DNA of 32,000 nt from Ruminococcus albus 7 = DSM 20455 (GCF_000179635.2 NC_014833.1:3600001-3632000), one strand, 5' to 3'. Shown: positions 7,015 through 25,728, numbered from the stretch's first letter. The notes: generated by a model from the letters alone, not told the origin. Translations and numbers: made by a program.

Positions 7015-7052
7015 ATATATAATTAAAGACAAATAACAATTGTTTTTAGGAG

Positions 7053-7384: not shown

Positions 7385-7386
7385 AT

Positions 7387-7734: not shown

Positions 7735-7738
7735 ATAG

Positions 7739-8050: not shown

Positions 8051-8085
8051 ATTAAAATCCGCAACAGCGGTGAAAGGAAAAAACC

Positions 8086-8883: not shown

Positions 8884-8886
8884 GGC

Positions 8887-10177: not shown

Positions 10178-10182
10178 TAAAG

Positions 10183-10198
10183 TGTGTCTATAGACACA
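10183..10198. repeat. Palindrome TGTGTCTATAGACACA, copy 1
   Basis: Perfect 16-bp palindrome, 5 nt after stop 10175-10177. Confidence 0.9.
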
Positions 10199-10219
10199 GT
10201 TTATCAAGTGGTGCTGGGA

Positions 10220-10420
10220 ATGGAAATACGAATAATCGGAACCAAAGAAGAACTGGAGCAGGCGGCAATTCAGATAGCTGCCTGCTACAAAATAAAATAC
10301 AAAAGTCGAATCTATCTCTGCCGTGATAAAAAGGCTTACCGGCTGTATATAAAAACCGAGGATAACCACATAGAGGAAGAAAAGCAGCTGGAAGGTCAGA
10401 TGTCTTTTGATGAGGTGTGA
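10220..10420 (+). CDS. Hypothetical small protein (ATG 10220; the track start GTG 10184 lies inside the palindrome)
   Basis: ORF in the operon orientation. No motif recognised. Confidence 0.4.
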   Translation: MEIRIIGTKEELEQAAIQIAACYKIKYKSRIYLCRDKKAYRLYIKTEDNHIEEEKQLEGQMSFDEV

Positions 10421-10438
10421 TTTCATGAGGTACAATAT

Positions 10439-10672
10439 ATGAAAATGGGAAAGCTTGGATATAATAGCGACAATAGCAGATACGGCATTCTTGTCTGCGA
10501 TTTATGGGAGTTAGATGGCTTTCGCTGTGGCGATACATTAGAGGTGTGGGACAGAGATACAGAGCAGTGGATACCGACACGCATGGAAATGCGTTGGAAA
10601 AACGAATGGTATCTCGTCGGCACGCCATACAGCGGTACGGCTTTAGAGGGTTTGAAAGTAAGAGTGAAATAA
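10439..10672 (+). CDS. Hypothetical small protein (77 aa)
   Basis: GAGGT RBS 8 nt upstream. Compact ORF, no motif recognised. Confidence 0.55.
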   Translation: MKMGKLGYNSDNSRYGILVCDLWELDGFRCGDTLEVWDRDTEQWIPTRMEMRWKNEWYLVGTPYSGTALEGLKVRVK

Positions 10673-10711
10673 TCTGAGCTTGTGCTGTAAATTTAACAAG
10701 GAGATTATAAG

Positions 10712-11599
10712 ATGAAAGTACATAATCACGATTATCCCGACCACAAAACCGCAAGGCAGTGGGCAAAACAAGGCTTTTTACCAATAGATGGGGCAGAAGG
10801 AATAGAGTTATGGGCAAATCAATTTTGTCAGAATAAATACATCTATTACGGACCCGATGAAGTATCCAAGGCTACACCCGATCAGCTTTCTAACTTTTTC
10901 CGCTTTGAACGAGAAAACCGAAATCAAAGAGAAAAAGAAAAAAGGAAGCACAGAAACGCTGAACTAATTGCAGAAAACAAAGAGCTTAGAAAAGAGAATA
11001 ATCTACTTGAATTATCCTTATGCGAACTTGAAAGGACTGCAATTAGACTTATGCGAAACGTTGACATATCACCCGAAAAATCAGCGGATACTATTATAAT
11101 AGATACTGAAACAACAGGACTCAGTGAATTAGACGATGAATTGCTGCAAGTATCTATCATCGATGATGCAGGAAATGTTCTTTACAACAGCTATCTTCGC
11201 CCCTTATACCATACTTCATGGAAAGAAGCGGAATGTGTAAATAACATTACTCCGCGAATGGTAGCGGAGGCACCGACCATCTATGATGAAATGCCAAAGA
11301 TAAATGCTATCATAAAAGCTGCCAAAAAAATCATAGGCTTTAATACCGGGTTTGATGAAAACTTCCTTTATTTCTCCGGTGGAATTTCATGGATGAATAA
11401 AGAGGTCGTTGATGTAATGACGATGTTCGCGCCGATCTACGGTGAATGGAGCGAACAATACGACGATTATAAATGGCAAAACCTTATTAAAGCTGCCGAT
11501 TACTATGATTATGATTGGAGCAGCCGACCAGGTGAAGCACACAACAGTCTTGCAGACTGCTATGCTACCCTATATGTGTACAATAAGATCATTGAATAA
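10712..11599 (+). CDS. DEDDh 3'-5' exonuclease (DnaQ/epsilon-like) with an unknown N-terminal domain and coiled coil
   Basis: Exo I IIIDTETTG, Exo II GFNTGFDENFL, Exo III EAHNSLADCYATLYVY. AAGGAG RBS. The N-terminal ~125 aa are unassigned and include a basic heptad stretch, RENRNQREKEKRKHRNAELIAENKELRKEN. Confidence 0.8.
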   Translation: MKVHNHDYPDHKTARQWAKQGFLPIDGAEGIELWANQFCQNKYIYYGPDEVSKATPDQLSNFFRFERENRNQREKEKRKHRNAELIAENKELRKENNLLELSLCELERTAIRLMRNVDISPEKSADTIIIDTETTGLSELDDELLQVSIIDDAGNVLYNSYLRPLYHTSWKEAECVNNITPRMVAEAPTIYDEMPKINAIIKAAKKIIGFNTGFDENFLYFSGGISWMNKEVVDVMTMFAPIYGEWSEQYDDYKWQNLIKAADYYDYDWSSRPGEAHNSLADCYATLYVYNKIIE

Positions 11600-11603
11600 A
11601 AAG

Positions 11604-11619
11604 TGTGTCTATAGACACA
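11604..11619. repeat. Palindrome TGTGTCTATAGACACA, copy 2
   Basis: Perfect copy, 4 nt after stop 11597-11599 and 8 nt upstream of a consensus -35. Confidence 0.9.
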
Positions 11620-11627
11620 TTTTATTC

Positions 11628-11656
11628 TTGACATAAGAGAGCATTTAGTCTATAAT
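11628..11656 (+). promoter_or_regulatory. Consensus SigA promoter TTGACA-17-TATAAT
   Basis: TTGACA 11628-11633, 17-nt spacer, TATAAT 11651-11656, then AGAGAGG RBS and ATG 11667. Confidence 0.7.
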
Positions 11657-11666
11657 AGAGAGGTAA

Positions 11667-11858
11667 ATGATGAAGAACTTATATGATAAAAGTAAGTATA
11701 TCAACAAAAAAACACTCGATCCAAAAGCAGAGATAATATTAAAAACAAAGGATAAACTTGATGAATATCGAAAAAAAACAATTAAAACAGATACAAGCTC
11801 TGATTTCAAAGACAAGCTGTATCGGATCTGTTGTACAATTATATCTAAATATAAATAA
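11667..11858 (+). CDS. Small ORF (63 aa) overlapping the next gene in another frame; may be the true 5' end of that gene
   Basis: Best promoter and RBS context in the region. It overlaps the 11758 ORF by 101 nt, and an A8 run at 11771-11778 lies in the overlap. Confidence 0.35.
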   Translation: MMKNLYDKSKYINKKTLDPKAEIILKTKDKLDEYRKKTIKTDTSSDFKDKLYRICCTIISKYK

Positions 11859-12411
11859 AGATTTAAGATTAAGGTTAAAACCTAAATGTTTATCTAATTG
11901 TTGCCAATGCTGCAATGATCTTTTTTTTATATCACCTCCAGAATTCTACACAATTCTCTTTTACCTGAAAGAATACATGGGTGAAGACTATATTTTAGCA
12001 AAAATACAGTATTCTCAAGCAATGTTGAATAAACTGAAAAATGCTTGTCCATCGTATGATGATTATTCAAGTTCTTATTTATCATTTGATAAAGACCTAT
12101 ATATTTCTTTACATGACACCTTAGAAAACCATAAAATTCGCTGCCCTTTTTTAAATTCCAAAGGTCATTGTGACATTTATCCTGTACGACCTTTAATCTG
12201 TAGGTTATATGGTTGGAAAATACAGTGTAAAAATATAGGTAAAACAATGAAATATAACAAGTATGAAAAATACAATGAATTTCAAAAACTAAATGGTTAT
12301 AATGGTAAGTTTGAAAAAGAGTATATCATAATTGATTATCTTGCTGAACTTGCTCCCCTACTTTTATTTAATGAAGAAGAGTTCAAGAAAAAATATCAAG
12401 AATCCATATAA
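11758..12411 (+). CDS. YkgJ-type (CxxCxxCC) Zn/Fe cysteine-cluster protein
   Basis: CLSNCCQCCN near the N-terminus, and CPFLNSKGHCDIYPVRPLICRLYG, the pattern I recognise from the YkgJ/UPF0153 family. Confidence 0.65.
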   Translation: MMNIEKKQLKQIQALISKTSCIGSVVQLYLNINKDLRLRLKPKCLSNCCQCCNDLFFISPPEFYTILFYLKEYMGEDYILAKIQYSQAMLNKLKNACPSYDDYSSSYLSFDKDLYISLHDTLENHKIRCPFLNSKGHCDIYPVRPLICRLYGWKIQCKNIGKTMKYNKYEKYNEFQKLNGYNGKFEKEYIIIDYLAELAPLLLFNEEEFKKKYQESI

Positions 12412-12460
12412 GCAAATCTGATAAAGTAGTTTATTTAAATACAGTTTATAATACACGTAA

Positions 12461-12491
12461 AGCAGCCAATTAATAATGGCTGTTTTTTTTT
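12461..12491 (+). terminator. Rho-independent terminator
   Basis: CAGCCA (12463-12468) pairs with TGGCTG (12477-12482), followed by T9. Confidence 0.7.
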
Positions 12492-12498
12492 GTAAATA

Positions 12499-12825
12499 AT
12501 GATACAAATGAAAGGTAAGATGAAAATGAAAGAAAATATTATTGTAGGATTTAGAGGACCCAGTAAAAAAAAATCTGTAAGATACAATCAGAAGCTAATC
12601 ACTTCCTCCATAATGGTAATCACATCACCATATGAAGAGACAGTAAGAAAATGTATAGCAGAGTATAATATTAAGGATTTTGATTTTAATTCAGCTACAT
12701 ACGGGTTATATTCAAACATAAGAATAGAACTAAATAACGAAACCGGCGAGTGTAAGATTCAGGTGTTTGATGAAAATACAGGTGAACTGAAAGCTTTATA
12801 CAAGGGAGTAACTAAAAATGAATAA
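12499..12825 (+). CDS. Hypothetical protein (start possibly ATG 12526)
   Basis: ORF with AAAGGT at 12511-12516. No motif recognised. Confidence 0.5.
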   Translation: MIQMKGKMKMKENIIVGFRGPSKKKSVRYNQKLITSSIMVITSPYEETVRKCIAEYNIKDFDFNSATYGLYSNIRIELNNETGECKIQVFDENTGELKALYKGVTKNE

Positions 12826-12867
12826 CGAACAGCAGATAGGATGGAGCGCAAAACGGGGGTTGATTTA

Positions 12868-13044
12868 ATGAAAGATCTATTAGATATTTTCTCAATAGAT
12901 TTTATTGCTATTGGTATTGCTGGTTTTATTTATTTCTTTTTTATCATGAGTTTTATCAACATACAAAGAAGATTTCCAAAGTCAAAAACTAATAATGAAA
13001 AGACACAAGAAAGGAATGATGGAAATGAACCAAAAAAAGAATAA
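12868..13044 (+). CDS. Small single-TM protein (58 aa)
   Basis: GGGGGT RBS 7 nt before ATG 12868, in frame with the track ORF 12841. TM: FIAIGIAGFIYFFFIMSFI. Confidence 0.45.
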   Translation: MKDLLDIFSIDFIAIGIAGFIYFFFIMSFINIQRRFPKSKTNNEKTQERNDGNEPKKE

Positions 13045-13258
13045 CCGCTTTGAGTACATGATAATCACAATTTGCGGAGTATTTATAATAACCTATGCTA
13101 TGATGGTTGACAAGATCATGAATTTCCCGGAAGTCATGTCAAGCACTCCGTTGAAGATACTATTAACCGTTTTTTCTTGTATTGTGTTTATCATCACTGT
13201 TTGCCTTACAGTGAGATTATTCATGCTCATTCATAAGGATTATGTAGAAAGGAGATAG
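12995..13258 (+). CDS. Small two-TM protein (start possibly 13016-13025)
   Basis: Hydrophobic segments MIITICGVFIITYAMMV and ILLTVFSCIVFIITVCLTV. Overlaps the previous ORF. Confidence 0.45.
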   Translation: MKRHKKGMMEMNQKKNNRFEYMIITICGVFIITYAMMVDKIMNFPEVMSSTPLKILLTVFSCIVFIITVCLTVRLFMLIHKDYVERR

Positions 13259-13261
13259 ACC

Positions 13262-13627
13262 ATGTATAGTCTTGAAGATGTTAAAAGCGGACAATGCAAT
13301 CTGATGTTAACTGTTGTCGAAACAGATTACGGCAGATTTGTCACCGATGAATACATCAGTGATGATGATCTGTATTCCTCATCGGCTTTGGTCGATTATT
13401 TTGATAGCTGTGACTGCGATGATGCAGATTATGCAGATATAGAAGTCGGTTTATACAGGTACGGTGATCTCGGTGGTGATGCCGATGATATGCTGACCGA
13501 TGATGTTCGCGCATATATCGAGTATGACATTGAGAGTTTCCTCAGCAAATGCGACCCACTAGAAACCAATACCTATGAGGTCGATCTGAGGATGCTGCTT
13601 GATCGAGGAGCTGAAAGGGGGTATTAA
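13262..13627 (+). CDS. Highly acidic 121-aa protein
   Basis: By hand count, roughly 33 Asp/Glu against about 8 Lys/Arg (DDDLY, CDCDDADYADIE, GGDADDMLTDD). Starts 4 nt after the previous stop. Confidence 0.6.
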   Translation: MYSLEDVKSGQCNLMLTVVETDYGRFVTDEYISDDDLYSSSALVDYFDSCDCDDADYADIEVGLYRYGDLGGDADDMLTDDVRAYIEYDIESFLSKCDPLETNTYEVDLRMLLDRGAERGY

Positions 13628-13631
13628 TTTC

Positions 13632-14747
13632 ATGGCTATGAATTTACATATAAGTCTAAGAAATAAAATACTTAGTGAATACTGTGAATTTCGTAAATCA
13701 CAGGAACAGCTTCAGCCAAAAGAAGTATATGAAAATGCGTATGAAATAGTTATCAAACAGAACATCAGAGATCTGATATGTGATGAAACCGTTGCGCTAA
13801 CTTCTGAACAAAAAATCGCTTTAAAATTGAGCAATAATACTCTCGATGAGATCTATGAAGATTGGCTTGATAAAGATACTGAAAATCTGGCAGACATACC
13901 CGATACTATCACTGAAACGGCAGACAGGCTTATGTCAAAAGTGAAATCCAAAAGTCAGCTTATTTGGAAAGGTTTCCTTGCTGAGAACAGACTCGATCTT
14001 AATATCAGAGCTATAAAGATACGCAACAGTACAAATTCAGATATTTTTGAGATAAAGGAAGTCATAAAAGACGAATACACGATATTATACAACAACAACG
14101 ATAACGGCACCGAAACATTGACATCAGTTGATGAATTGAGATCAGTTTATGAAAAAACACTTGACAAGTATTCCGGAAAGCTAATAGAAACACACGGAAA
14201 AGAAGTCACAGGTGTATTGCTGGAAATTCCAAATAGACTGACACCTTTTACTGAATTCAAAGATTTTTGCCCTGATTGGCGTGAACGAGGGTCAACTCCT
14301 TCATACGTTAAAGAAGTATGGGATAATTTTCTGAAAGACCATGATCTTCCCGAGAATACTACTAAGATATCCTTCCATGCAACAAGCACCTACTATGTCG
14401 GAGGCATTGATGAAAATGGTCATGAACGTAAGGACAATTATTCTGAATATACAGAAGATGATTCATTTTACTTATTCGATTACGATAACGAGTTAGTAAT
14501 ACGGTATGGTTTTGAATCAGAACTTGACTTCCCTATCGAAGATACGATAATCGATCCATCAATCCTTTCAAAGGATTATGAAGACGTACTTGAAAAATAC
14601 TCAACCGAGTTAAGTAAAAGAACCTATAATTATATAGATGTTTGCATAACAAAATCAGATGGAAGCGAAACTCACGAAGATTTTGAATCGTTTTGCCCTG
14701 ATTGGGAAGAACGTGCTCCGATTATCACCTCATCTCGGCAAAGATGA
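13632..14747 (+). CDS. Hypothetical protein with an internal duplication ending in FCPDW(R/E)ER
   Basis: AAAGGGGG RBS before ATG 13632. The motif pairs YEKTLDKYSGKL...FKDFCPDWRERG and YEDVLEKYSTEL...FESFCPDWEERA indicate two copies of one module. Confidence 0.6.
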   Translation: MAMNLHISLRNKILSEYCEFRKSQEQLQPKEVYENAYEIVIKQNIRDLICDETVALTSEQKIALKLSNNTLDEIYEDWLDKDTENLADIPDTITETADRLMSKVKSKSQLIWKGFLAENRLDLNIRAIKIRNSTNSDIFEIKEVIKDEYTILYNNNDNGTETLTSVDELRSVYEKTLDKYSGKLIETHGKEVTGVLLEIPNRLTPFTEFKDFCPDWRERGSTPSYVKEVWDNFLKDHDLPENTTKISFHATSTYYVGGIDENGHERKDNYSEYTEDDSFYLFDYDNELVIRYGFESELDFPIEDTIIDPSILSKDYEDVLEKYSTELSKRTYNYIDVCITKSDGSETHEDFESFCPDWEERAPIITSSRQR

Positions 14748-14772
14748 TAAAGCAAATGCCAGGAGGATAGAA

Positions 14773-15291
14773 ATGAATCAAATAACAACAAATGATTTTT
14801 TTGATATTCACTATGGTTTCGAGTGGATAAAAGAGAATATTCGCAATAATTCAGCTATATCAAAGTTTAAAAAAGGCAAGTATCATTTTTACTTTACGGT
14901 AAACAAAGACGATAATACAATAACAGCAAATGAAACAGATGATAAAGCTGAATTTACAGTAAGTACAACTAAAAAACTCGATATAAAAAAAGAGGAGTTT
15001 CTAATAAAAACTGCTCAAATTCATGGTTTAGAGTATGTTTCGTTTACGCATTATCTTTCTACGACTGATGATATATGGTCAGAAGATAATATTAATGAAA
15101 TACAAAAAAAATACATTAAAAGCTATGTTGTGCCAATAGCCCAAAAGTTTGAATTATCAGACTTTGAGAATAATGATTTATTCGCTGAGGAATTTGATAA
15201 TGTATGTGATTATATCTGGTGGCAAATGGTAACTGCTATTGAGCGCAAATACGGTAATTTGTTTTGGAAAAGGCTAACATTCGATAGCTAA
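14773..15291 (+). CDS. Hypothetical protein (172 aa)
   Basis: AGGAGG 14761-14766 then ATG 14773, preferred over the track start at 14659, which overlaps the previous gene. Confidence 0.55.
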   Translation: MNQITTNDFFDIHYGFEWIKENIRNNSAISKFKKGKYHFYFTVNKDDNTITANETDDKAEFTVSTTKKLDIKKEEFLIKTAQIHGLEYVSFTHYLSTTDDIWSEDNINEIQKKYIKSYVVPIAQKFELSDFENNDLFAEEFDNVCDYIWWQMVTAIERKYGNLFWKRLTFDS

Positions 15292-15319
15292 TATTTTCTT
15301 ATAAGGAGTGTGCATTATA

Positions 15320-15613
15320 ATGGCAAAGAAAACAGGAAGTATACTTGATAAGCTGGAGCTGAATGTCGATGAAGAAAAGATATCACTCATAAACTTCTAC
15401 ATAAAAGAGGACGGTGATACTCTTGATCTGGCAGCTGAACTCTCTGCTGTCATCAACAATCACATTGATAAGCTCTACAAAAAGAAAGTCCCAAAATCCG
15501 TAAGACACTACATCGAGAACAAGGACAAGGAGGATAGCGATGGACAACACTCTGATAAAGTGCTCGTTCAGCCTGATGCTGGCGGGTCATCGGATCAAAG
15601 CGAAGGGATATAA
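15320..15613 (+). CDS. Hypothetical small protein
   Basis: AAGGAG 15302-15307, ATG 15320. The 3' 74 nt overlap the next ORF, so the true end is uncertain. Confidence 0.4.
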   Translation: MAKKTGSILDKLELNVDEEKISLINFYIKEDGDTLDLAAELSAVINNHIDKLYKKKVPKSVRHYIENKDKEDSDGQHSDKVLVQPDAGGSSDQSEGI

Positions 15614-15998
15614 AGTAAAGGCACTTTCCCACAAACAGCTGAATAAAATATGCTTGCTGATAGCTTATACCTCAGATACGATCTACTATCTATCAGCAAT
15701 GGAGTATATGGATCAAAAGCCCAATGCGAAGATAAAATACGGTACAGTATCAGATACCGGGACGGATCTCATAATGACAGAAAAGCTTAGTCTTGATTAT
15801 GATGCTATCAATGATATGCTGCAAGCAGGGACGATTTTCCCCATTTCTTCTTCTCCGGGAGAAAGAAAAAACGGTCGGCTCATTGATACCGATTCGGATT
15901 TTACAAGCTGGGCAAGCAAAAATGGACTTAGACCATATCTAAGAGCGTATCGGTCCGAGATCGGTGCCGATGATATTCATTATACTACAAAGTTCTGA
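15540..15998 (+). CDS. Hypothetical protein (152 aa)
   Basis: AAGGAGG 15527-15533, 6 nt before ATG 15540. Confidence 0.5.
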   Translation: MDNTLIKCSFSLMLAGHRIKAKGYKVKALSHKQLNKICLLIAYTSDTIYYLSAMEYMDQKPNAKIKYGTVSDTGTDLIMTEKLSLDYDAINDMLQAGTIFPISSSPGERKNGRLIDTDSDFTSWASKNGLRPYLRAYRSEIGADDIHYTTKF

Positions 15999-16660
15999 TG
16001 AGACGAAAAATTATGACTGACGATGCTCTGTATACAGATAAAAGCGGTAGACTGTATGAACTGAAGAAACAGTTTTATCATACAGCTGTACTGCAATCTA
16101 TGACAGAACATACATATCTAATTGCATCAAAACCATACATTACAGACGATGGCTGCATTGAATGGCGTAATGCAATAGTATCAACCAATTATCTTAATGC
16201 AGTTAAATCTGCAATGGAGAAGGATATAATGTACGAAAGCATTGAAAATCGTATTTCACTGAAAAATACAGCAAGTGACATTGATAAAGAGATCTCAGCA
16301 TCAATGCATGAACTGTATCATTACGATCTTGATGGAGCCTATGATAAGCTTTCTCTTAATCATAGCGATTTCGATATAGCACAGGCGGTAGCACTTACCA
16401 TTCACGGTAAGTCATGGGACGGGAGATTTTCAGATCTTAACAAAGCATGGGCTGATAACTTCATACAAGCCTATGATGTAAAAATCGAAGAGTATAGAGA
16501 TTTCTTCGGCTGTGATACTCACCCATCTGTGCTTGACGGTTTTACGGATGTTGTACGTATGAGGATAGCGAACAGGAGTATAGATCAGACTCAGGATATA
16601 GATAATGATTACGATCAGTCCTACGAACAATCCGAATCAATGGGTTACGGAAGAAGATAG
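15998..16660 (+). CDS. Hypothetical protein (220 aa)
   Basis: Its start ATG (15998-16000) overlaps the previous stop TGA (15996-15998), which suggests translational coupling. Confidence 0.55.
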   Translation: MRRKIMTDDALYTDKSGRLYELKKQFYHTAVLQSMTEHTYLIASKPYITDDGCIEWRNAIVSTNYLNAVKSAMEKDIMYESIENRISLKNTASDIDKEISASMHELYHYDLDGAYDKLSLNHSDFDIAQAVALTIHGKSWDGRFSDLNKAWADNFIQAYDVKIEEYRDFFGCDTHPSVLDGFTDVVRMRIANRSIDQTQDIDNDYDQSYEQSESMGYGRR

Positions 16661-16756
16661 TAATTTTTTAAATTATCATTTTCGCCTTTTAGTAGAACTG
16701 GAAAATTTTCCCAATTTGCACAAAAGCACAGATATATCTTTGTTAAGGTTTTCTCT

Positions 16757-16784
16757 TGTTTATTCAGGGCTTTCATGATATAAT
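16757..16784 (+). promoter_or_regulatory. Promoter with extended -10
   Basis: TTGTTT (16757-16762), 16-nt spacer, TGaTATAAT (16776-16784). Confidence 0.5.
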
Positions 16785-16827
16785 ATAATTGGGAAATAAT
16801 TTGAAACAAACGAAAGGTGGGCTTAGT

Positions 16828-17493: not shown

Positions 17494-17494
17494 A

Positions 17495-17510
17495 TGTGTC
17501 TATAGACACA
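17495..17510. repeat. Palindrome TGTGTCTATAGACACA, copy 3
   Basis: Perfect copy, 1 nt after stop 17491-17493 and 17 nt upstream of a -35. Confidence 0.9.
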
Positions 17511-17527
17511 CTTGCCCGACCAACTTC

Positions 17528-17556
17528 TTGATTTATTACAGACGATGTGATATACT
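17528..17556 (+). promoter_or_regulatory. Promoter TTGATT-17-TATACT with an upstream TG
   Basis: TTGATT 17528-17533; TGaTATACT 17548-17556; AGGAG RBS 17571-17575. Confidence 0.55.
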
Positions 17557-17585
17557 TAGATAAAACAATCAGGAGATGACCAAAG

Positions 17586-18626
17586 ATGAAAAGAATCACA
17601 ATTTCAGTAATCGTAATGATATCAATGCTGCTTACATCCTGCGGTAATATCAGTGAGAAAGACAATGCAGCAAATACATCTGCCGAAGTGACCACAACGA
17701 CGGTAGCCGATGACACTTCTTCTGTCACAACAACAAGCGAAACAGAAGAAACAAGTGAAGCGGTTACAACGACTACCAGGACAGAAAAGGACGATAGTTC
17801 ATCGCAGGCTGAAACGACTGCTGCTACAACAAGTAAAAAATCTACTACTACCAGCAAAAAGACTTCGAGTAAGATAAAGGTCACATCTTCAGGTCGAACC
17901 GGGTCATCAAATAACAGTAACAATGGCGGAGGTTATTCCGGTGGCGGGAATGTTGTTACTCAGGCTCCGGCACAACAGCAGGCAGCACCTACACAGACAA
18001 CAACTACAACTCAGCCGCCTGTGAAGAAAACAACTACTACCACAACAACTACACAGTACATTCCTGAACCTGAACCTATTCCGGAAGATCCTTTTGCAAA
18101 TTTTGATATTTCAGAGTATGATCCGGAACTGTATTCATCAATGTGTTATATCTTTGGTAATGGTACTTCACCAATCATGAACCTTCAGATATGGGTTTTC
18201 CTAAGTGATTACCCTATCGACTGTGTTGGCAAGTTCCAGGCTGGGCAAAACCTCTCTTACGATGGTACAGACTACGGCAAGGCAAAGGCTGTATGTGAAT
18301 ACGCATACAATTGTGGTGGTAGAAACTGCATAGAATACGCACTTAATGCATACTTCGTTGCTCAGGGCGCGGGTCTTGAGTGTTACCTCGCACGCTCATC
18401 ACAATATGACTGGTATGGTCACGTAGCGAATATTGTAAGAATAGATGGTCAGTATTACTACATGGAACCAATGACAAACGAAACTACAGCAAATACAGCC
18501 ATAGCTTTCGGTGGTTATCGCGCGGACGGTAGTGGTATAATAGATCCTGTTCCACTTGATATTTTCTTTGATATCTATGATAATAGATACTCATTTGACG
18601 TTTCTTCATCTAAATATGGAGAATAA
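17586..18626 (+). CDS. Lipoprotein with a Thr/Ser-rich linker and a C-terminal transglutaminase-like (papain-fold) domain
   Basis: Signal peptide plus lipobox, MKRITISVIVMISMLLTSC. Long T/S/Q-rich linker. The C-terminus has GGRNCIEYALNAYFVAQGAG...GHVANIVRIDGQYYYMEP, matching a Cys...His...acid transglutaminase-core pattern. Confidence 0.7.
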   Translation: MKRITISVIVMISMLLTSCGNISEKDNAANTSAEVTTTTVADDTSSVTTTSETEETSEAVTTTTRTEKDDSSSQAETTAATTSKKSTTTSKKTSSKIKVTSSGRTGSSNNSNNGGGYSGGGNVVTQAPAQQQAAPTQTTTTTQPPVKKTTTTTTTTQYIPEPEPIPEDPFANFDISEYDPELYSSMCYIFGNGTSPIMNLQIWVFLSDYPIDCVGKFQAGQNLSYDGTDYGKAKAVCEYAYNCGGRNCIEYALNAYFVAQGAGLECYLARSSQYDWYGHVANIVRIDGQYYYMEPMTNETTANTAIAFGGYRADGSGIIDPVPLDIFFDIYDNRYSFDVSSSKYGE

Positions 18627-18642
18627 TAGCTAAACAACTTCA

Positions 18643-18680
18643 AGCACTTAACAAATATCATGTTAGGTGCTTTTCTTTTT
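18643..18680 (+). terminator. Rho-independent terminator after the lipoprotein gene
   Basis: AGCACTTAAC (18643-18652) pairs with GTTAGGTGCT (18662-18671), with one G-U pair, then TTTTCTTTTT. Confidence 0.6.
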
Positions 18681-18703
18681 CTCACGGAGAATATGATAGA
18701 TCA

Positions 18704-18740
18704 AGCATTTCCTAAATCTGCCAAAGGAAATGCTTTTTTT
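18704..18740 (+). terminator. Second hairpin plus T7, 30 nt upstream of the surface-protein start
   Basis: AGCATTTCC (18704-18712) pairs with GGAAATGCT (18726-18734), then T7. Confidence 0.55.
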
Positions 18741-18769
18741 ATATTAAAATTCAGAAAGGATATGATAAT

Positions 18770-21700
18770 ATGTTCAAAAGCAAATTTTTGAAGAGAATCG
18801 GCACCGGGATAATGGCTGCTGTATGCGCTTTTTCTTTTGCGACCGCAGAAGTGAAACCGATGAAAGCAAAAGCTGCATCAGAAGCAGTTTTCCCAAACGC
18901 CGATCAGATCATCGCACAGGCAGCTACTCTTCTTGGAGGTAATTATTCAAGCGCCGGTGGTAAAGGCTATTACAATATGTATGATGCCAACAAAACACCT
19001 GTCGCTTACGATGTGAATTATACTCGTTCAGCCGGGGTAGACTGCTCAGGATTGGTGTACTATACCATGACAAAGCTTGGTTACTCAACATCAGGTTTCG
19101 CATGGAATCACCCCGTCCCCGTAGATACTACTCATTGGCTGAGCTACACCAATCCTACTATTTCATACAAAGGCACTACTAAGCCCCTTGAAATAGAAAA
19201 AATAAGAGTAAGTACCAACAATCACCCCTACTGGGAAAGGTCAAACGGTAGTACGATAGAGCCCGGCTCTATTGTTATCGGTGATCCTACGAATGGCAGT
19301 ACTGATCATGCATGGATTTACATGGGCGAATTCGATAATAAAGCAGCTGTTAAAGCTTATCTGAAAAAGATAGGTGTAAATCCTGCATATATCAACGATA
19401 AAAACATTCATGATAATGGTGACGGTGGTAATCACTGGCGCATTGAAGCACAGAGTACATACGGTGTTGTTATAAATAATGACACTAGCGGTAAATACAC
19501 AGGTGCCATGAGAGTTTCTTCTTTCAAATTAAACAGAAATGCCATGTTCACAATACAGAAAACTGAAATCGGCACCGGTAAGATAGTCGGAATTTCTAAG
19601 GTTGACGGAACATCAGCCGTATATGGTGTTTATACAGATAAAAGCTGTAAAAACAAAGTTGATGAAATAAAAATTAACAAAAACGGACTTGGCACTCTTA
19701 GCTTACCTTACGGTACATATTACGTCAAGGAAATAAAAGCTCCGACAGGCTATAATGTATCGAATGATGTTTATACTCTTGTTCCGAATGAAACTGTCAT
19801 CGTTAATGAGGTTAAAACGACTGGATCTATTCGCATTAACAAGACAGCTGAAGATGGTGTAAAAAACAGAGAATTTATGATCAGTTGGTTTGAAAACGGT
19901 GCAATCCATAGAGAACGTTTAAACACCAATACACTCGGTGTAGCAAAGATTGACGGGCTTAACCTCTATGATTATGACGGTGATGTTATAAATTACACTG
20001 TTTCAGAGATAAACAACGATCTGAGAAATGTTAATCCTAGCGCACAGACTGTTACTCTTTCAGAAGCCGATCCCAACAAGGATTATACCGTAGACCTCTA
20101 TTTTAACAATGAGTATAAATACGGCTCTCTCGTATTACACAAAACTCATACAGACGGCAACACCGATGATCGTACCTTTACTGTAACAGGTAACGGCGAA
20201 ACTTATACAGTAGTAACTCATGGCAATGAGCCTGCGGCACTTGAACATCTGCGTATGTACGATGATGATAACAACATCATTACATATACAATTCATGAGG
20301 AAAATGTTCCGGATAGATATGTTCAGCCCGAAGATCAGGAAGTAACTCTCCTGCTTAATCAGGTCACAGATGTATACATCGTTAACAGCCATGTTCCCGG
20401 TACACTCATACTCAAAAAGAGACATGAGGACGGTAAAACAGGTGACCGTAATTTCACAATCACAGGCAGTGATGGCTCCGTCAGAACTGCTGTAACACAT
20501 GGTAATGAGCCTACAGTTATTTCTGACCTTGATATCTATGATACTGACAGCAACCTCATAACATACACTATCCATGAGGAAAATACACCTGATAGATATG
20601 AACAGCCTGCGGATCAGGATGTTACTCTTGAATACAATAAATCCAAGACTGTAACAATCGTCAACAGACTGAAACGCGGTTCAATATCTATCCACAAGCA
20701 GAACAGTGAAACACTTGAGCCTGTTGCCGGTGCAAAATATGAAGTGACCTGCAACGAAGATATTTACAGCTCAAATGGCAAGGATATGATTCCTGCCGGC
20801 GAGCCCATATACACACTGGAAACCAACGAGGACGGCAACGCAGCAACACCTAAGTCCCTGCCTATCGCTCACACATATACACTCACAGAAGTATACGTGC
20901 CGGACGGATATATTTCAGGTGATCCTATCACTATCGAAATGAGTGATGACGGAACACAGCTTGAATACCGTACAACCATAAACGAAAAGCCCACAATCGT
21001 AAAGATAAGCAAGAAATCTCTCACAACAAAAGAAGAACTTGAAGGTGCAAAACTCACAGTAACCGATGATAACGGTACAATAATTGATGAATGGACATCT
21101 ACAACTACTGAACACACTATCATTGGTAAGCTTACAGTCGGCAAGGAATACACTCTGACAGAGGTTCTCGCTCCTGACGGATTCCTCACTGCGGAAAGCA
21201 TCAAGTTTACTGTAAATGAAGATGGCTCCTCAAATCACATTACGATGTATGATGAGGAAAAATCAGGCAGTATCGAAGTTCACAAAACTACCGAAGGCAT
21301 GATAAACGTTGAGGGAATAAGCTTTACACTCAGCGGTACATCAGACCACGGCACAGAAGTAAACACACAAGCAATTACTAACTCAGACGGTATTGCAACC
21401 TTTGAGAAGATCCCTGTGGGTACATACACCATCACCGAAGATGCTGAATCAGTGCCTTATGCGTACCTTGTGGCTGATGAACAGGAAGTATCTGTTATGT
21501 ACGCAGAAACAACTATCGCTGAGATTTACAACGATGAAAAGTCGGGAACTGTTGAGGTCCACAAGAATACTAAGAACAAGGGCAATATCGCTGATATCAA
21601 TTTCGTTCTTGAGGGTACATCTGACAGCGGCAGAGATGTAAAGCTGGAAGCTGTGACCGATAAGGATGGTAAGGCAGTATTTAACAAGGTGCCTGTTGGT

Positions 21701-22516
21701 ACATACACCATCACAGAGGACAAGGAAACAGTACCTACTGCATACCTTGTGGCTGAAAAGCAGGAAGTAAATGTACTGTATGCCGAAACATCTATTGCAG
21801 AAGTTTTCAATGATGAAAAGACAGGCAGCATTGAGATCCACAAGACAACCGAGGGTATGATAAACATCGAGGGTATCAAGTTTATCCTTGAGGGTGTATC
21901 CGACAGTGGAACAGATGTTCACGTTGAAGCTATTACTGACAAGGACGGTAAAGCTACTTTCAGTAATGTTCCTGTTGGAACATACTCTATCACAGAGGAT
22001 GAAAAGACTGTACCGACTGCATATATGGTAGCCGAAGAAACCGAGGTTACTGTGCTGTACGCTGAAACAGTAACTAAGGAGATATTCAACGGTGAAAGAT
22101 CCGGCAGCATCAGTATTCAGAAACAGACTGAGGGAATGAAAGATATCGCCGGAATTAATTTTGTGCTTGAAGGTACATCTGACAGCGGCAGAACTGTGAA
22201 GCTTGAAGCTGTGACCGACAAGGACGGTAAAGCTACATTCAATGGTGTGCCGATAGGTACATACACCATAACCGAGGACGGTAAATCTGTGCCTGCGGCT
22301 TATTTTGTAGCTGATGCTCAGACAGTAACTGTATTTGAAGCACAGACTTCAAACATTACTTTCGAGAACAAGAAAAAGCCTGATTCTTCAACTCCTTCTA
22401 CTTCATTAACCACCACAAGCAATCCTTCAACCGGAGTTGCTGCTAACGGTGCGTTTGCTGTAACAGCAATTGCACTCGCTCTCATGATCATTTCAAGAAA
22501 GCGTAAGAACAGCTAA
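18770..22516 (+). CDS. Sortase-anchored surface protein: N-terminal NlpC/P60 peptidoglycan hydrolase plus Cna-B/SpaA-type repeat domains
   Basis: Signal peptide. NlpC/P60 Cys motif GVDCSGLVYY and His motif DHAWIYMG. Many ~90-aa repeats with the pattern G(S/T)I.I.K....G...F.L.G....DG.A.F..(V/I)P.GTY.I.E. The C-terminus has NPSTG, a hydrophobic segment and RKRKNS. Confidence 0.9.
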   Translation: MFKSKFLKRIGTGIMAAVCAFSFATAEVKPMKAKAASEAVFPNADQIIAQAATLLGGNYSSAGGKGYYNMYDANKTPVAYDVNYTRSAGVDCSGLVYYTMTKLGYSTSGFAWNHPVPVDTTHWLSYTNPTISYKGTTKPLEIEKIRVSTNNHPYWERSNGSTIEPGSIVIGDPTNGSTDHAWIYMGEFDNKAAVKAYLKKIGVNPAYINDKNIHDNGDGGNHWRIEAQSTYGVVINNDTSGKYTGAMRVSSFKLNRNAMFTIQKTEIGTGKIVGISKVDGTSAVYGVYTDKSCKNKVDEIKINKNGLGTLSLPYGTYYVKEIKAPTGYNVSNDVYTLVPNETVIVNEVKTTGSIRINKTAEDGVKNREFMISWFENGAIHRERLNTNTLGVAKIDGLNLYDYDGDVINYTVSEINNDLRNVNPSAQTVTLSEADPNKDYTVDLYFNNEYKYGSLVLHKTHTDGNTDDRTFTVTGNGETYTVVTHGNEPAALEHLRMYDDDNNIITYTIHEENVPDRYVQPEDQEVTLLLNQVTDVYIVNSHVPGTLILKKRHEDGKTGDRNFTITGSDGSVRTAVTHGNEPTVISDLDIYDTDSNLITYTIHEENTPDRYEQPADQDVTLEYNKSKTVTIVNRLKRGSISIHKQNSETLEPVAGAKYEVTCNEDIYSSNGKDMIPAGEPIYTLETNEDGNAATPKSLPIAHTYTLTEVYVPDGYISGDPITIEMSDDGTQLEYRTTINEKPTIVKISKKSLTTKEELEGAKLTVTDDNGTIIDEWTSTTTEHTIIGKLTVGKEYTLTEVLAPDGFLTAESIKFTVNEDGSSNHITMYDEEKSGSIEVHKTTEGMINVEGISFTLSGTSDHGTEVNTQAITNSDGIATFEKIPVGTYTITEDAESVPYAYLVADEQEVSVMYAETTIAEIYNDEKSGTVEVHKNTKNKGNIADINFVLEGTSDSGRDVKLEAVTDKDGKAVFNKVPVGTYTITEDKETVPTAYLVAEKQEVNVLYAETSIAEVFNDEKTGSIEIHKTTEGMINIEGIKFILEGVSDSGTDVHVEAITDKDGKATFSNVPVGTYSITEDEKTVPTAYMVAEETEVTVLYAETVTKEIFNGERSGSISIQKQTEGMKDIAGINFVLEGTSDSGRTVKLEAVTDKDGKATFNGVPIGTYTITEDGKSVPAAYFVADAQTVTVFEAQTSNITFENKKKPDSSTPSTSLTTTSNPSTGVAANGAFAVTAIALALMIISRKRKNS
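21257..22372 (+). repeat. Four in-frame tandem repeats of 279 bp (93 aa) inside the surface-protein gene
   Basis: Units start at 21257, 21536, 21815 and 22094, each beginning E(K/R)(S/T)G(S/T)(I/V)... A more diverged pair lies at about 20123-20680. Confidence 0.85.
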
Positions 22517-22553
22517 TCATCGCTTTAAAAAGCACCCCCTTATAAAAGCAGAC

Positions 22554-22581
22554 AGCCGCCCTATACAGGCGGCTTGTTTGC
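22554..22581 (+). terminator. Terminator of the surface-protein gene
   Basis: AGCCGCC (22554-22560) pairs with GGCGGCT (22569-22575), followed by TGTTTG. Confidence 0.5.
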
Positions 22582-22652
22582 TGAATGTCTACGAACAATT
22601 TGTCTATAAACACATTTTCTCTTTATTCATTCGTAGGCATTCAGCAGATAAT
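22571..22652 (+). repeat. Composite hairpin repeat, copy 1 (16-bp arms around a degenerate palindrome)
   Basis: Arms GCTGAATGTCTACGAA (22580-22595) and TTCGTAGGCATTCAGC (22630-22645). The loop carries TTTGTCTATAAACACA (22599-22614). The ends are shared with copy 2. Confidence 0.8.
22599..22614. repeat. Palindrome family, degenerate copy (TTTGTCTATAAACACA)
   Basis: Matches the 16-bp consensus at 14 of 16 positions and sits in the loop of composite repeat 1. Confidence 0.6.
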
Positions 22653-22696
22653 TTGATCTTCACGATAAATTAATTAGTAAAGTAGGTGATGTAATT

Positions 22697-23101
22697 ATGA
22701 AATCATTAAACGATGAAAATAAATTTATTGAAAATGAAATCACAGTAATTGATCCTGAAATTCTTACAGTCAAAGAAAACAATACATTTAAGATTTTAAT
22801 GTATGGCTTTACCATCGATGAAGAAGAGATACCTCTTTTGTGTGATATAGAAAGTGTAGAACCACGCATACTGGGAGATACAGAAAAACAATATATTTTA
22901 CTCTTTAGATTTAAAAATCCAGTAAGAAACGATATATATGTACACTACACTGTGAATTTTGTATTTGACGATGACAGAGAGACTTTTATCAAAGCATACA
23001 ACTACATAAAAGAGCTAATTACCGTAGAACATATCTTACTTGATTTTTATTGCATTAACAAATTTAATCCTTTTTATGAGATCGGTTTTTTTTATGACTG
23101 A
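22697..23101 (+). CDS. Hypothetical protein (134 aa), very AT-rich
   Basis: AGGTGA RBS. No motif recognised. Confidence 0.55.
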   Translation: MKSLNDENKFIENEITVIDPEILTVKENNTFKILMYGFTIDEEEIPLLCDIESVEPRILGDTEKQYILLFRFKNPVRNDIYVHYTVNFVFDDDRETFIKAYNYIKELITVEHILLDFYCINKFNPFYEIGFFYD

Positions 23102-23145
23102 AAATGAGAAAAAGGCAAATTAAGGTAATCGAAAGGAGTATAAAT

Positions 23146-23910
23146 ATGGAACAAGGGTATTATGTACTGTGTAACGATATTAATGAGCTACTATCAATGA
23201 TAAAATATGGAGAACCGGGACTTCCTTATGTCATTGACTGGGCAGTACCTAATCTAAAAAAGCAAAAAATATTTCCGGTATATGTTCATGCTGGATTACT
23301 AGAAGAACTAGGGATAATCTTAAGTGATATCCGCGAATCAAAACCATCGTGTGAATACGATACTATTATAACATATAATGAGTTTTTGCAGAGCAAAACA
23401 TCACAAACCAAACAGGTAAATGCAACACAAAGCATAAAAGGAGGAACAAATATGAAAAGATACAGAATATGCTATGATAAAATGCTGGTAGCAAAAGGTG
23501 ATCTGAATATTAACGGAGAACTGTATGGTGGTGTCGCGGCATACCTTGAATATCAGGTATTCAATAAATCTTCCGGAGAAGAAATATTCTTCACTTTCGA
23601 CGATACTGATACTCCCCGAGAAGAAAAAATCGAAGGTCATTATCTTAATGACTTTTACGATCTTGCTTATGACAAGGAAAATGGCTTTATCATCATTCCA
23701 GCCGATGAACTGAAAGAGCTTAAAGATCACGTTATAAAATTCAGAGTTGGTATGTTCACTAAGAGCATAGATAACAATGGATGTTTAGAAGATGTTTCCA
23801 TAACCGAAAAACAGTTCGTAAAGATACTCAAAGATAATCCGCAATCATTCGACACAGCAGATAACAATTTCGCTCAGAATTGTGGTGTTACATTCAACAT
23901 CATTGGATAA
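23146..23910 (+). CDS. Hypothetical protein (254 aa; possibly two products)
   Basis: AAAGGAG 23132-23138 before ATG 23146. An internal in-frame AAAGGAGG (23437-23444) lies 7 nt before ATG 23452. Confidence 0.55.
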   Translation: MEQGYYVLCNDINELLSMIKYGEPGLPYVIDWAVPNLKKQKIFPVYVHAGLLEELGIILSDIRESKPSCEYDTIITYNEFLQSKTSQTKQVNATQSIKGGTNMKRYRICYDKMLVAKGDLNINGELYGGVAAYLEYQVFNKSSGEEIFFTFDDTDTPREEKIEGHYLNDFYDLAYDKENGFIIIPADELKELKDHVIKFRVGMFTKSIDNNGCLEDVSITEKQFVKILKDNPQSFDTADNNFAQNCGVTFNIIG

Positions 23911-23929
23911 CAAAAAATACGAATTCTGT

Positions 23930-23965
23930 AAAAAAGCTGCCGACAACAATGCCGACAGCTTTTTT
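23930..23965. terminator. Bidirectional terminator between convergent genes
   Basis: AAAAAAGCTG (23930-23939) pairs with CAGCTTTTTT (23956-23965). Confidence 0.5.
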
Positions 23966-23967
23966 GC

Positions 23968-24375
23968 TTAGATCCTATCAAGTAACTCCGACGGTTTGAG
24001 CGCAGGAATTTTACTATCCTTAAAATCACGAATGTTTCTGGTTACAATAAAATCCGCATTGATCCTACTTGCCTGACACATCTGTAAAGCATCTTCATAA
24101 TCAGAAGTGAGCATTTCTGCCGCTGAATTAAGGTCGGATGATTTAAGATCAACGACTTCAAAAATCATAAGTATCTGCTTTATTAGCTGCTCCGTTTTCT
24201 TAGGATCAAGTTCCTTGCGCAGGATGTACACAATATTCGGTACAGTGAGTGCAGAAACATATCCATCGATTTTGTTTACCTCGCAGTATTTCCAAATCTT
24301 TGATGAATTTTCTACAAAATCCGGTCGATTGCAGAGAACGTCAAGGATCACATTTGTATCAATCAAGATCTTCAT
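23968..24375 (-). CDS. vapC: PIN-domain toxin (VapC-type ribonuclease)
   Basis: MKILIDTNVILDVL opens with the first PIN acidic residue. 135 aa. Overlaps the upstream antitoxin gene by 17 nt. Confidence 0.85.
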   Translation of the reverse strand: MKILIDTNVILDVLCNRPDFVENSSKIWKYCEVNKIDGYVSALTVPNIVYILRKELDPKKTEQLIKQILMIFEVVDLKSSDLNSAAEMLTSDYEDALQMCQASRINADFIVTRNIRDFKDSKIPALKPSELLDRI

Positions 24376-24592
24376 GTTTCTTTAACCTTTCCGCGCGAAT
24401 TTCTTTTTCATCATAATCATTTTTTAGAACTCCTGTAAGCGAGTCCGTTAGAAAAGAAACCGTAGACTTATGTGAAACCAGTCTGGCAACTTCTTTTCCG
24501 TTTTTGAGTATGATTATCTCGCCGCCTTGCTGAACTTCTTGTAGATACTGACCGAAGTTATTTTGAAAATCAGTTGCTGTTGCAGTAATCAT
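24359..24592 (-). CDS. Phd/YefM-family antitoxin
   Basis: 77 aa. The N-terminus ITATATDFQNNFGQYLQEVQQGGEIIILKNGKEVARLVS fits the Phd/YefM pattern. GGAGGTG RBS. Confidence 0.8.
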   Translation of the reverse strand: MITATATDFQNNFGQYLQEVQQGGEIIILKNGKEVARLVSHKSTVSFLTDSLTGVLKNDYDEKEIRAERLKKHEDLD

Positions 24593-24623
24593 AAAAACAC
24601 CTCCATGTTTTTTAGCTAATATA

Positions 24624-24652
24624 AGTATATCATATTTTAGCTAAAATGTCAA
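24624..24652 (-). promoter_or_regulatory. Toxin-antitoxin promoter TTGACA-17-TATACT with two TTAGCTAA palindromic boxes
   Basis: On the minus strand: TTGACA (24652-24647), 17-nt spacer, TGaTATACT (-10 at 24629-24624). TTAGCTAA occurs at 24637-24644 (in the spacer) and at 24612-24619 (downstream of the -10). Confidence 0.65.
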
Positions 24653-24675
24653 TGGATATTTTAGTAACGCAGAAA

Positions 24676-24761
24676 GGCTTGTTTGCTGAATGCCTGCGAA
24701 ACTGTGTCTATAGACACACTCCCCCTCCCCCATTATTATTCGCAGGCATTCAGCAGATAAT
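24676..24761 (+). repeat. Composite hairpin repeat, copy 2
   Basis: Perfect 16-bp arms GCTGAATGCCTGCGAA (24685-24700) and TTCGCAGGCATTCAGC (24739-24754). The loop carries the perfect palindrome and a C-rich tract. Confidence 0.85.
24703..24718. repeat. Palindrome TGTGTCTATAGACACA, copy 5
   Basis: Perfect 16-bp palindrome in the loop of composite repeat 2. Confidence 0.9.
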
Positions 24762-24803
24762 ACGGTCTGCTATAAAATTATAATTTAAAAGGAGGTTTTT
24801 CTA

Positions 24804-25607: not shown

Positions 25608-25728
25608 TTTCTTCTCTCTCGGAGAATAAAAACTCAAAACAATAAGCACAAACTTTAATCGTTACTCCCTAGGGAAACAAAGCTATAATCACTCCTACGG
25701 GAGATTTTGTTGCGAAAGGATATAAATA

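Follow-up and report, generated by a model that had tools for sequence, protein, structure and literature searches.

The systems described so far that come closest to the locus treated here both pair a ParB-family protein with a 16-bp palindrome. In Bacillota, the chromosomal protein Spo0J acts on parS (TGTTNCACGTGAAACA). On the IncP-1 plasmid RK2, the ParB-family protein KorB, which is encoded together with the ParA protein IncC, acts at the OB sites, which lie 4–10 bp or 45 to >1000 bp upstream of promoters (PMC11790492). ParB clamps loaded with cytidine triphosphate (CTP) that double as long-range silencers have so far been documented for KorB on Gram-negative IncP-type plasmids. Here, we analyzed a stretch of 32,000 nucleotides from Ruminococcus albus 7 = DSM 20455 (NC_014833.1:3600001-3632000; the window in the following, with all coordinates counted from its first nucleotide). 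Rightward of about 7.7 kb, the window is occupied by a mobile element, which has almost all of its genes on the + strand and encodes a ParA ATPase and a ParB-like protein. Copies of the palindrome TGTGTCTATAGACACA are dispersed over this element. Comparison with related elements suggests that these palindromes are the cognate sites of the element's own ParB-like protein, i.e. diverged sites of the parS/OB type, and we assign a probability of about 0.7 to this reading.

Placement of the palindrome

The window was scanned for the 16-mer TGTGTCTATAGACACA with up to three mismatches, and the chance level was derived from shuffled sequences. Six matches were observed, compared with 0.19 expected, and none of 100 shuffles reached six. 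The six copies and the two par genes are as follows.

7895–7910, no strand: palindrome copy TGTGGCTAAAGACACA, 14/16, about 175 nt 5' of the parA start and near the left end of the element
8086–8883, + strand: parA, encoding a Walker-type, ParA/Soj-like ATPase of 265 aa (Pfam AAA_31 2e-48, CbiA, ParA, MipZ)
8887–9807, + strand: parB-like gene, encoding the proposed binder of 306 aa (Pfam ParB_N 2e-11, HTH_ParB 8e-6)
10183–10198, no strand: perfect copy, 5 nt past the stop codon of the open reading frame (ORF) 9713–10177 and 21 nt ahead of the ATG at 10220
11604–11619, no strand: perfect copy, 4 nt past the stop codon of an exonuclease gene and 8 nt ahead of a consensus −35 box
17495–17510, no strand: perfect copy, 1 nt past the stop codon of the ORF 16789–17493 and 17 nt ahead of a −35-like box
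22599–22614, no strand: copy TTTGTCTATAAACACA, 14/16, between the arms of a 17-bp inverted repeat
24703–24718, no strand: perfect copy in the divergent region between a Phd/PIN toxin-antitoxin operon (− strand) and a SpoVG-domain gene (+ strand)

The initial annotation had reported the four perfect copies and the 14/16 copy at 22599. All five were found again by the mismatch search; the sixth, at 7895, had been overlooked. Its position is conserved, and a perfect palindrome occupies the matching alignment column in three related loci (L008, L077 and L080); a counterpart of the 10183 copy was present in L007, L076 and L077. The intergenic placement that had been noted for the five copies holds for all six. 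A mechanically called ORF (10184–10420) begins within the 10183 copy, but its weak DUF3970 match starts at residue 14, adjoining Met13 (ATG 10220). Three copies had been described as lying 1–5 nt after a stop codon, and the measured gaps were 5, 4 and 1 nt for 10183, 11604 and 17495. The chromosomal part of the window had been thought to be free of copies, and indeed none was found between positions 1 and 7700 with up to three mismatches.

Conservation of the palindrome was analyzed in contigs encoding relatives of the ParB-like protein, and motif classes were compared over about 95 such loci (designated L). The 12-bp core TGTCTATAGACA was invariant in every element with a ParB that is at least 47% identical (Ruminococcus elements, ParB 47–97%). 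It was retained even in L001, L003, L006, L009, L165 and L166, for which the ParB is 47–53% identical and the other DNA is barely or not alignable. In the majority of the elements with this core, the form TGTGTCTATAGACACA occurs, and a symmetric variant, TCTGTCTATAGACAGA, was found in two lineages (L001/L002 and L006); the group of loci to which the window belongs is termed clade A. Among 40 distinct copies, conservation reached four bases to each side, resulting in a site of about 24 bp, AAAG-TGTGTCTATAGACACA-CTTT, and the TAA of the TAAAG flank often doubles as the stop codon of the upstream gene.

The relatives carry 5–6 copies per 10–13 kb. As the initial annotation had proposed, homologous elements were searched for enrichment and position: 22 of 34 distinct copies were intergenic, compared with 10% expected (P about 1e-14, based on crude ORF calls), and the column upstream of parA was conserved as described above. 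The designation of the sites as operon junctions turned out to be too strong. Copies in relatives often lie between a stop codon and a Shine–Dalgarno sequence without room for a promoter, and some are intragenic. The truly intragenic copies encode V-S-I-D-T and are located within parB, at a codon position shared by four lineages of clade A (L003 10108, L009 1805, L165 2284, L166 633), and within a lipoprotein gene. The parB gene of the window has lost the internal copy. The lipoprotein-gene copies (L001 19413, L003 19912, L009 8148) are perfect and lie at the border between a Thr-rich linker and a C-terminal domain, SVSIDT[A/S]DLDDTLKAY; that of L001 has the TGTGTC form, although the other L001 copies are of the TCTGTC form.

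Several of the window copies are accompanied by promoter-like sequences.

7854–7882, − strand: TTGACT-17-TATAAT, 11/12, with TG, 12 nt from the 7895 copy and directed out of the element
11628–11656, + strand: TTGACA-17-TATAAT, 12/12, with the −35 box 8 nt downstream of the 11604 copy
17528–17556, + strand: TTGATT-17-TATACT, 9/12, with an extended TG, 17 nt downstream of the 17495 copy
24624–24652, − strand: TTGACA-17-TATACT, 11/12, with TG, for the Phd/PIN operon, 50 nt from the 24703 copy
24711–24739, + strand: −35 box TAGACA within the palindrome, upstream of the SpoVG-domain gene

The promoter scan thus returned both −35 boxes that had previously been placed at 11628 and 17528, 8 and 17 nt past the respective copies. 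The three best promoter-like matches in 19 kb were located 8, 12 and 50 nt from copies, and the palindrome itself includes TAGACA, which forms a −35-like box at 24711 (+) and at 10190 (−). For the window and the relatives together, 13 of 34 copies had a promoter match of at least 10/12 within 60 nt, whereas about 0.05 would be expected per site. In two independent cases, a 12/12 promoter lies 6 or 8 nt downstream of a copy (L007 241 and window 11628, respectively). Overall, distances of 6, 8, 12, 17, 44, 50 and 55 nt between copies and promoter-like sites were observed; these are matches to the consensus, and most copies lack one.

The ParB-like protein and its candidate sites

The ParB-like protein consists of a ParB N-terminal domain, a helix-turn-helix (HTH) and a helical C-terminus, with the recognition helix GISREQMYR starting at residue 162. 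A family profile was compared with PDB and matched Spo0J with 6e-21 (residues 52–238, covering the N-domain and the HTH), Noc with 4e-19 and KorB with 2e-6, as well as the ParB proteins of H. pylori and Myxococcus. The alignment to 6sdk and 4umk extends through the HTH (residues 52–238). An AlphaFold2 model had a pLDDT of 79, and its top Foldseek matches were ParB (ParB structures with CDP, cytidine diphosphate, or CTP), Noc and KorB. A conserved peptide at the N-terminus, MKFDKxSxTFSKRKE, for which disorder is predicted, would fit a ParA-interacting peptide. In most of the related loci whose upstream DNA was included, a ParA gene directly precedes parB. By fold, HTH and ParA partnership, the protein is a member of the ParB family without the canonical CTPase motif, and it is not an orthologue of KorB.

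Related ParA-ParB clades were found to carry palindromes of their own (percentages denote ParB identity).

Clade A, 11 loci, the window group: TGTGTCTATAGACACA, with TGTGTC half-sites
Clade A', 3 loci: TCTGTC..GACAGA
Clade B, 68 loci (L012-14, L089-L155), 163 copies, about 36%: TGTGTCAC-N-GTGACACA, filling the 36-bp parA-parB spacer and recurring downstream
Clade C, 4 loci (L016-18, L145), 31–35%: TGTGTCAA-W-TTGACACA, in arrays of 4–6 copies between parA and parB
Clade D, 2 loci (L010, L011), 39%: GGTGTCAAAAYYGACAC, in seven 24-bp tandem units
Clade E, 6 loci (L081-86), 41%: TCTGCCTNTAGGCAGA (TCTGCC..GGCAGA), inside parB (+114), just past parB and further downstream
L015 group (L015, L087, L088), 35–37%: TTGTC-NNNN-GACAA, mostly TTGTCGCAAGACAA, two upstream of parA and one after parB

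Each motif class was confined to the loci of one ParB clade, with the exception of L001, which contains both A and A' copies. Across the motif clades, the sites are located ahead of parA, in the parA-parB spacer or within parB. Of the 68 clade B loci, 66 had a copy at most 1.3 kb upstream of parB; the site within parB of clade E occupies the codon position equivalent to that of the clade A copies within parB; and L015 itself carries three dispersed copies of its motif. Within 10 kb, no window proteins other than ParA and ParB were found to recur across the clades. L048, which has a GERR-type ParB, served as a positive control for the procedure, and 3–5 copies of the canonical parS TGTTTCACGTGAAACA were recovered beside its parB. 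More distant ParB relatives (26–34% identity) have unrelated palindromes beside parB, namely TTCGTGCCAAGTTGGCACGAA, AATTCCCACCGTGGGAATT and AAACAGCNNGCTGTTT (L022 219, 9865 and 17843; L019 9344 and 9381; L020 9750 and 11047), which suggests that many ParB-site pairs have yet to be described.

The window site matches canonical parS at 10 of 16 positions (TGT.TC....GA.ACA), and the clade B site shares 14 of 16 positions with it plus one extra central base, so that a graded series runs from parS to the window motif. Residue 165 of the recognition helix, which follows a conserved Ser, tracks base 2 of the half-site. Arg or Lys was found with TGTGTC in at least six lineages (the window group, P0008, P0009, P0051, P0052, and clades B and C), Val with TCTGTC, Glu with TCTGCC, and Ala with TTTGTC. 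Its counterpart in the alignment with B. subtilis Spo0J is the Arg of GKSR, R149, on which specific parS binding depends. This pattern would fit a direct readout of base pair 2/15. A protein search seeded with the ParB of clade A' gained only two lineages, both of which combine TGTGTC with Arg or Lys; because no further A' lineage was gained, the covariation of Val with C rests on one event.

Together, a small Soj-like ParA, an HTH-containing ParB and sites at the par operon represent the architecture of a partition system. ParB dimers would read each half-site via the Spo0J-like HTH, and the bound sites, together with the adjacent Walker ATPase ParA, would provide the conjugative element, in its excised and circular form, with centromeres or points of nucleation. 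The same complexes could repress or autoregulate nearby transcription units, in the manner of KorB bound to the OB sites of RK2. Repression or autoregulation is probable because several copies are located 6–17 bp or about 45–55 bp upstream of strong −35 boxes and one copy lies upstream of parAB. A dual role in partition and regulation is therefore favoured, with the regulatory part being less certain.

Several observations weigh against this interpretation. The phosphate motif of the protein is GHHRYLA (GHHR at residues 90–93) instead of GERRxR, so that two of three arginines are gone, and the box ESNIHH replaces ENLQR; the canonical CTP-pocket motifs are thus absent, and clamp or CTP behaviour may be altered or missing. 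The covariation of site and ParB is, at the level of sequence, inseparable from that with any gene that is co-inherited outside the 10-kb flanks; the covariation of residue and base comprises few independent events, and clade D, which combines Glu with GGTGTC, does not fit a simple rule. A promoter-like sequence adjoins just about one third of the copies, and AT-rich intergenic DNA inflates the number of promoter matches (82 found versus 65 in shuffles). Many copies of the relatives are wedged between a stop codon and the next Shine–Dalgarno sequence (gaps of 0–5 nt and about 21 nt), a placement without obvious operator logic that would suit an RNA element as well; we attribute it to the lack of other free space in a compact element, with an added RNA effect being possible. 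A KorA-like partner was not seen in the window: Pfam scans of its ORFs yielded no small HTH protein, and a second palindrome common to the promoters was not observed. The element extends past the window.

The deviating phosphate motif, which the initial annotation had recognized in the ORF 8887–9807 and which the translation and the family alignment bear out, had raised doubt about ParB as the binder. The comparative results support the link and take away most of this doubt. KorB has GARRYR, yet it is a DNA-stimulated CTPase for which the Glu is dispensable, and its R117A mutant loses CTP binding (PMC11790492). R117 is taken to be the second Arg of GARR. Of the CTP-pocket motifs, the window protein retains only G90, R93 and N125. 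These residues are invariant in the ParB-like family, and R93 aligns with the second Arg of GERR/GARR. Because KorB with GARRYR is still a CTPase and R93 aligns with the Arg presumed to be lost in R117A, nucleotide binding by the GHHR pocket appears possible, although the two His residues are unusual. The earlier proposal of KorB-OB-like operators or dispersed parS sites has gained support from the exclusivity of the clades, the sites adjacent to parAB, the likeness to parS, and the match to Spo0J, Noc and KorB.

A more far-reaching model is tentative and at present rather doubtful. A family of Gram-positive conjugative elements (Ruminococcus/Oscillospiraceae) might use a ParB with a rebuilt nucleotide pocket (GHHR/ESNIHH) both as a KorB-like global silencer and as a centromere protein, with loading at a 24-bp site that separates almost all accessory modules. 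The specificity of this ParB would have been repeatedly reprogrammed through one recognition-helix residue (Arg/Lys, Val, Glu or Ala versus base 2), and islands without ParAB, such as that in L007, would hitch-hike.

The host element and alternative explanations

In addition to ParA and ParB, the element encodes an RNase T-like exonuclease, a CxxCxxCC protein, DUF3848 and DUF3849 proteins, a 1248-aa SpaA-domain surface protein and, on the − strand, the Phd/PIN toxin-antitoxin pair. The gene for the SpoVG-domain protein, which has two repeats (24804–25607), precedes an ORF of more than 2091 aa (25726–32000) that encodes a polyvalent protein (LPD25, DUF6908, MutS domain I, Eco57I-type methylase) and runs off the window. 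This gene set is typical of the cargo and early genes of Bacillota conjugative elements; the conjugation genes lie outside the window. For the closest ParB relatives, the annotated source is Ruminococcus albus. A megablast search of 7700–25700 against a plasmid collection yielded no match. In a viral collection, a 20-mer search returned three matches, all in one phage gene that encodes ..SVSIDTL.. and is not accompanied by ParA or ParB, so that these matches were judged a coding coincidence and rejected as true sites; a ParB-based scan of the same collection gained only distant relatives. Literature searches on the core motif, on DUF6017, and on ParB/parS of integrative and conjugative elements in Firmicutes retrieved no relevant papers.

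Homology to R. albus AR67 (L007) begins at 7694. Close to this position, on the − strand (7704–7790), a 45-nt segment that by eye resembles the part of a tRNA from the anticodon to the 3' end is followed by a 14-bp terminator hairpin, and the same arrangement was found in L007 and L008. The resemblance to a tRNA 3' part with a terminator hairpin behind it covers 7725–7790. It is probably the remnant of an attachment site at the left end of the element. The segment was called by neither ARAGORN nor Rfam; ARAGORN found no tRNA, and Rfam nothing meaningful, whether for the whole window at the gathering threshold or for 7600–8100 at E ≤ 1. The promoter-like site at 7854–7882 faces this remnant and its terminator, and a short outward transcript is possible. 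The parA leader (7925–8085) was about 99–100% identical among elements whose parA/parB region is just 87–92% identical to that of the window. Folding of this leader gave a 17-bp hairpin that has a T-run, as well as a GC-rich branched structure (−64 kcal/mol, z −5.5), and no Rfam family was matched; the leader may be an attenuator, a cis-regulatory leader or a different kind of DNA signal, e.g. an origin.

Two observations concern the surroundings of the sites in relatives. In L007, an island (1–8800) with a tyrosine integrase, an MmeI-type restriction-modification gene and a HipA-like gene adjoins the element. It carries four palindrome copies, with copies beside the integrase and the restriction-modification module, and no ParAB in the examined stretch; it could be a satellite that uses the ParB of the element, or the far end of a tandem element. 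In one lineage (L166 1569–2519, L167 and L168), a Transposase_31 gene (PD-(D/E)XK-type) directly follows parB and is flanked by palindromes.

Two of the window copies are enclosed by composite hairpins.

22579–22646, no strand: composite hairpin 1, a 17-bp inverted repeat with arms 22579–22595 and 22630–22646, enclosing the 22599 copy
24684–24755, no strand: composite hairpin 2, a 17-bp inverted repeat with arms 24684–24700 and 24739–24755, enclosing the 24703 copy

The loops had been correctly named as the location of these two copies. Hairpin 2 repeats hairpin 1 in direct orientation, and one compensatory change was noted between the two. Direct repeats of about 90 bp (22571–22660 and 24676–24769) enclose a 2-kb module (22697–24592) that holds two unknown ORFs and the Phd/PIN pair. 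The outer inverted repeat was not found in any of 155 other loci and is thus private to the element of the window. The 90-bp repeats may delimit a cassette that is private to this element, or they may represent a miniature inverted-repeat element with a candidate ParB site.

Four other explanations of the palindromes were considered. An unlikely one is that they are operators of a different element-encoded regulator, e.g. a small HTH protein outside the window, with ParB binding elsewhere or non-specifically. The window covers part of the element, the ORF of more than 2091 aa runs off its end, and relatives encode a small protein of 81–88 aa and a DUF6017 protein just upstream of parA; the non-canonical ParB pocket and the inability of covariation to separate co-inherited genes are also in line with such a regulator. 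However, ParA and ParB were the only proteins found in all motif clades within 10 kb, the element of the window has the sites although no DUF6017 gene precedes its parA, in most clades the sites directly flank parB or are contained in it, and a parS-like site goes together with a Spo0J-like HTH. A function as boundary repeats, selfish or recombinogenic, of the type of repetitive extragenic palindromic (REP) sequences, miniature inverted-repeat transposable elements or cassette junctions, without a dedicated binding protein, is very improbable. The gene content between copies varies among relatives, some homology blocks versus L007 and L008 end 14–45 nt from copies, the TAA of the flank often serves as the upstream stop codon, and two copies lie inside the 90-bp direct repeats with their 17-bp terminal inverted repeats around the 2-kb module. 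Yet about 5 of 21 block ends near copies represent no excess, as about 20% of the gene junctions there carry a copy, and the idea of cassette borders was rejected on this basis. Selfish repeats would not be expected to show clade-specific variants and conserved positions at parAB, the chromosomal flanks are devoid of copies, and the outer inverted repeat is missing from the 155 other loci. A role as boundary repeats would be compatible with ParB binding, and the two could coexist.

The remaining two explanations assume that the palindromes act as hairpins. It is quite improbable that they are RNA hairpins in polycistronic transcripts, i.e. weak terminators, 3'-end stabilizers or intercistronic processing signals. 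This would suit the many loci in which copies lie 0–5 nt past a stop codon and 16–21 nt ahead of the next start, and the A/T flanks AAAG...CTTT, which lengthen the stem. Folding z-scores were −4 to −6 for 10183 and 11604. Nevertheless, a terminator scan passed only one of the six window copies (11604, on the − strand), and pairing is not protected, as five of seven asymmetric deviations in imperfect copies break a pair. The central TATA, which would form the loop, shows the same degree of conservation as the stem, and no position of the 12-bp core varies. Copies also occur within coding sequences, upstream of parA and in divergent promoter regions (24703; L080 2134 and 2193), and the tandem arrays of clades C and D are typical of centromeres, with the clade D units being poor hairpins. 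Intrinsic terminators or REP-like hairpins would have a G+C-rich stem with a U-run behind it and would keep their pairing in variant copies; such a function was rejected for most copies. It is hardly credible that the palindromes form hairpins on the single strand that is transferred, where they would serve for priming or as single-strand promoters while the DNA enters by conjugation. Genes of the leading-region type (polyvalent protein, DUF3848/3849, exonuclease) are present on the element, all on one strand, and the composite hairpins folded as single-stranded DNA with −25 kcal/mol and z −6 to −7. In contrast, single copies have a stem of 6–8 bp that is too weak for this purpose (−4 to −10 kcal/mol), a perfect palindrome carries no strand information, and the long hairpins are private to the element of the window. 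The copies with broken pairs, the conserved TATA, the intragenic and divergent placement and the arrays of the relatives favour a duplex DNA site rather than a hairpin.

If the palindromes are indeed the sites of the ParB-like protein, elements of gut and rumen Bacillota would offer a natural series in which variants of ParB and of the site go together. Such a series suits two questions, namely how specificity is reprogrammed and whether CTP binding persists in a GHHR pocket. In a poorly described family of Ruminococcus elements, the sites indicate how far an element extends and where its modules meet, and they could act as a signature by which such elements and their satellites are recognized.

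Comparison with described systems

The KorB-OB system of RK2 resembles the locus in several respects. In both cases, a ParB-family protein is encoded with a ParA protein, and many copies of one 16-bp palindrome are distributed over a conjugative element; here, six copies span 7895–24718. Copies upstream of −35 boxes may be common to both, with promoter-like matches at distances of 6–8, 12 and 17 bp here and promoters at 4–10 bp for OB, or at ≥45 bp. Both proteins have a deviant phosphate motif (GARRYR in KorB, GHHRYLA here) and a disordered N-terminal peptide. However, KorB is not an orthologue of the window protein, given profile matches of 2e-6 for KorB and about 1e-19 to 1e-21 for Noc and Spo0J. 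The sequence of OB is unrelated to the window site, many copies in the window family are without a nearby promoter, and the host is a Gram-positive anaerobe that carries an integrated element rather than a plasmid.

In sequence and structure, Spo0J is the best match to the window protein across the N-domain and the HTH. Both systems have a small Soj-like ParA, and both sites are 16-bp palindromes of the form TGT..C....G..ACA. They differ in the phosphate motif (GERR versus GHHR here) and in the centre of the site (ACGT versus TATA here). Unlike chromosomal parS, the sites of the window family occur almost only in short intergenic spacers of mobile elements, are absent from the flanking chromosome and form arrays between parA and parB in relatives. 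The spo0J gene of B. subtilis contains a parS, and sites within parB are likewise present in several lineages of the window family.

Noc, which is also a strong structural match to the window protein, provides an example of a ParB-family HTH that has been retargeted to another palindrome, the Noc-binding site (NBS), by a few changes in the recognition helix. In contrast to the window protein, which always has an adjacent ParA, Noc has no ParA partner, is chromosomal and controls the division site. P1 ParB-parS, F SopB-sopC and R388 StbA/stbDR represent centromere-binding proteins that additionally repress promoters in their vicinity, or repeated operators between the genes of a conjugative element (discussed in part in PMC11790492). 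The sites of P1 and F are clustered at one locus and StbA is not a ParB, whereas identical sites are spread over at least 17 kb in the element described here. Taken together, the element most likely works like ParB-parS, and probably also like KorB-OB.

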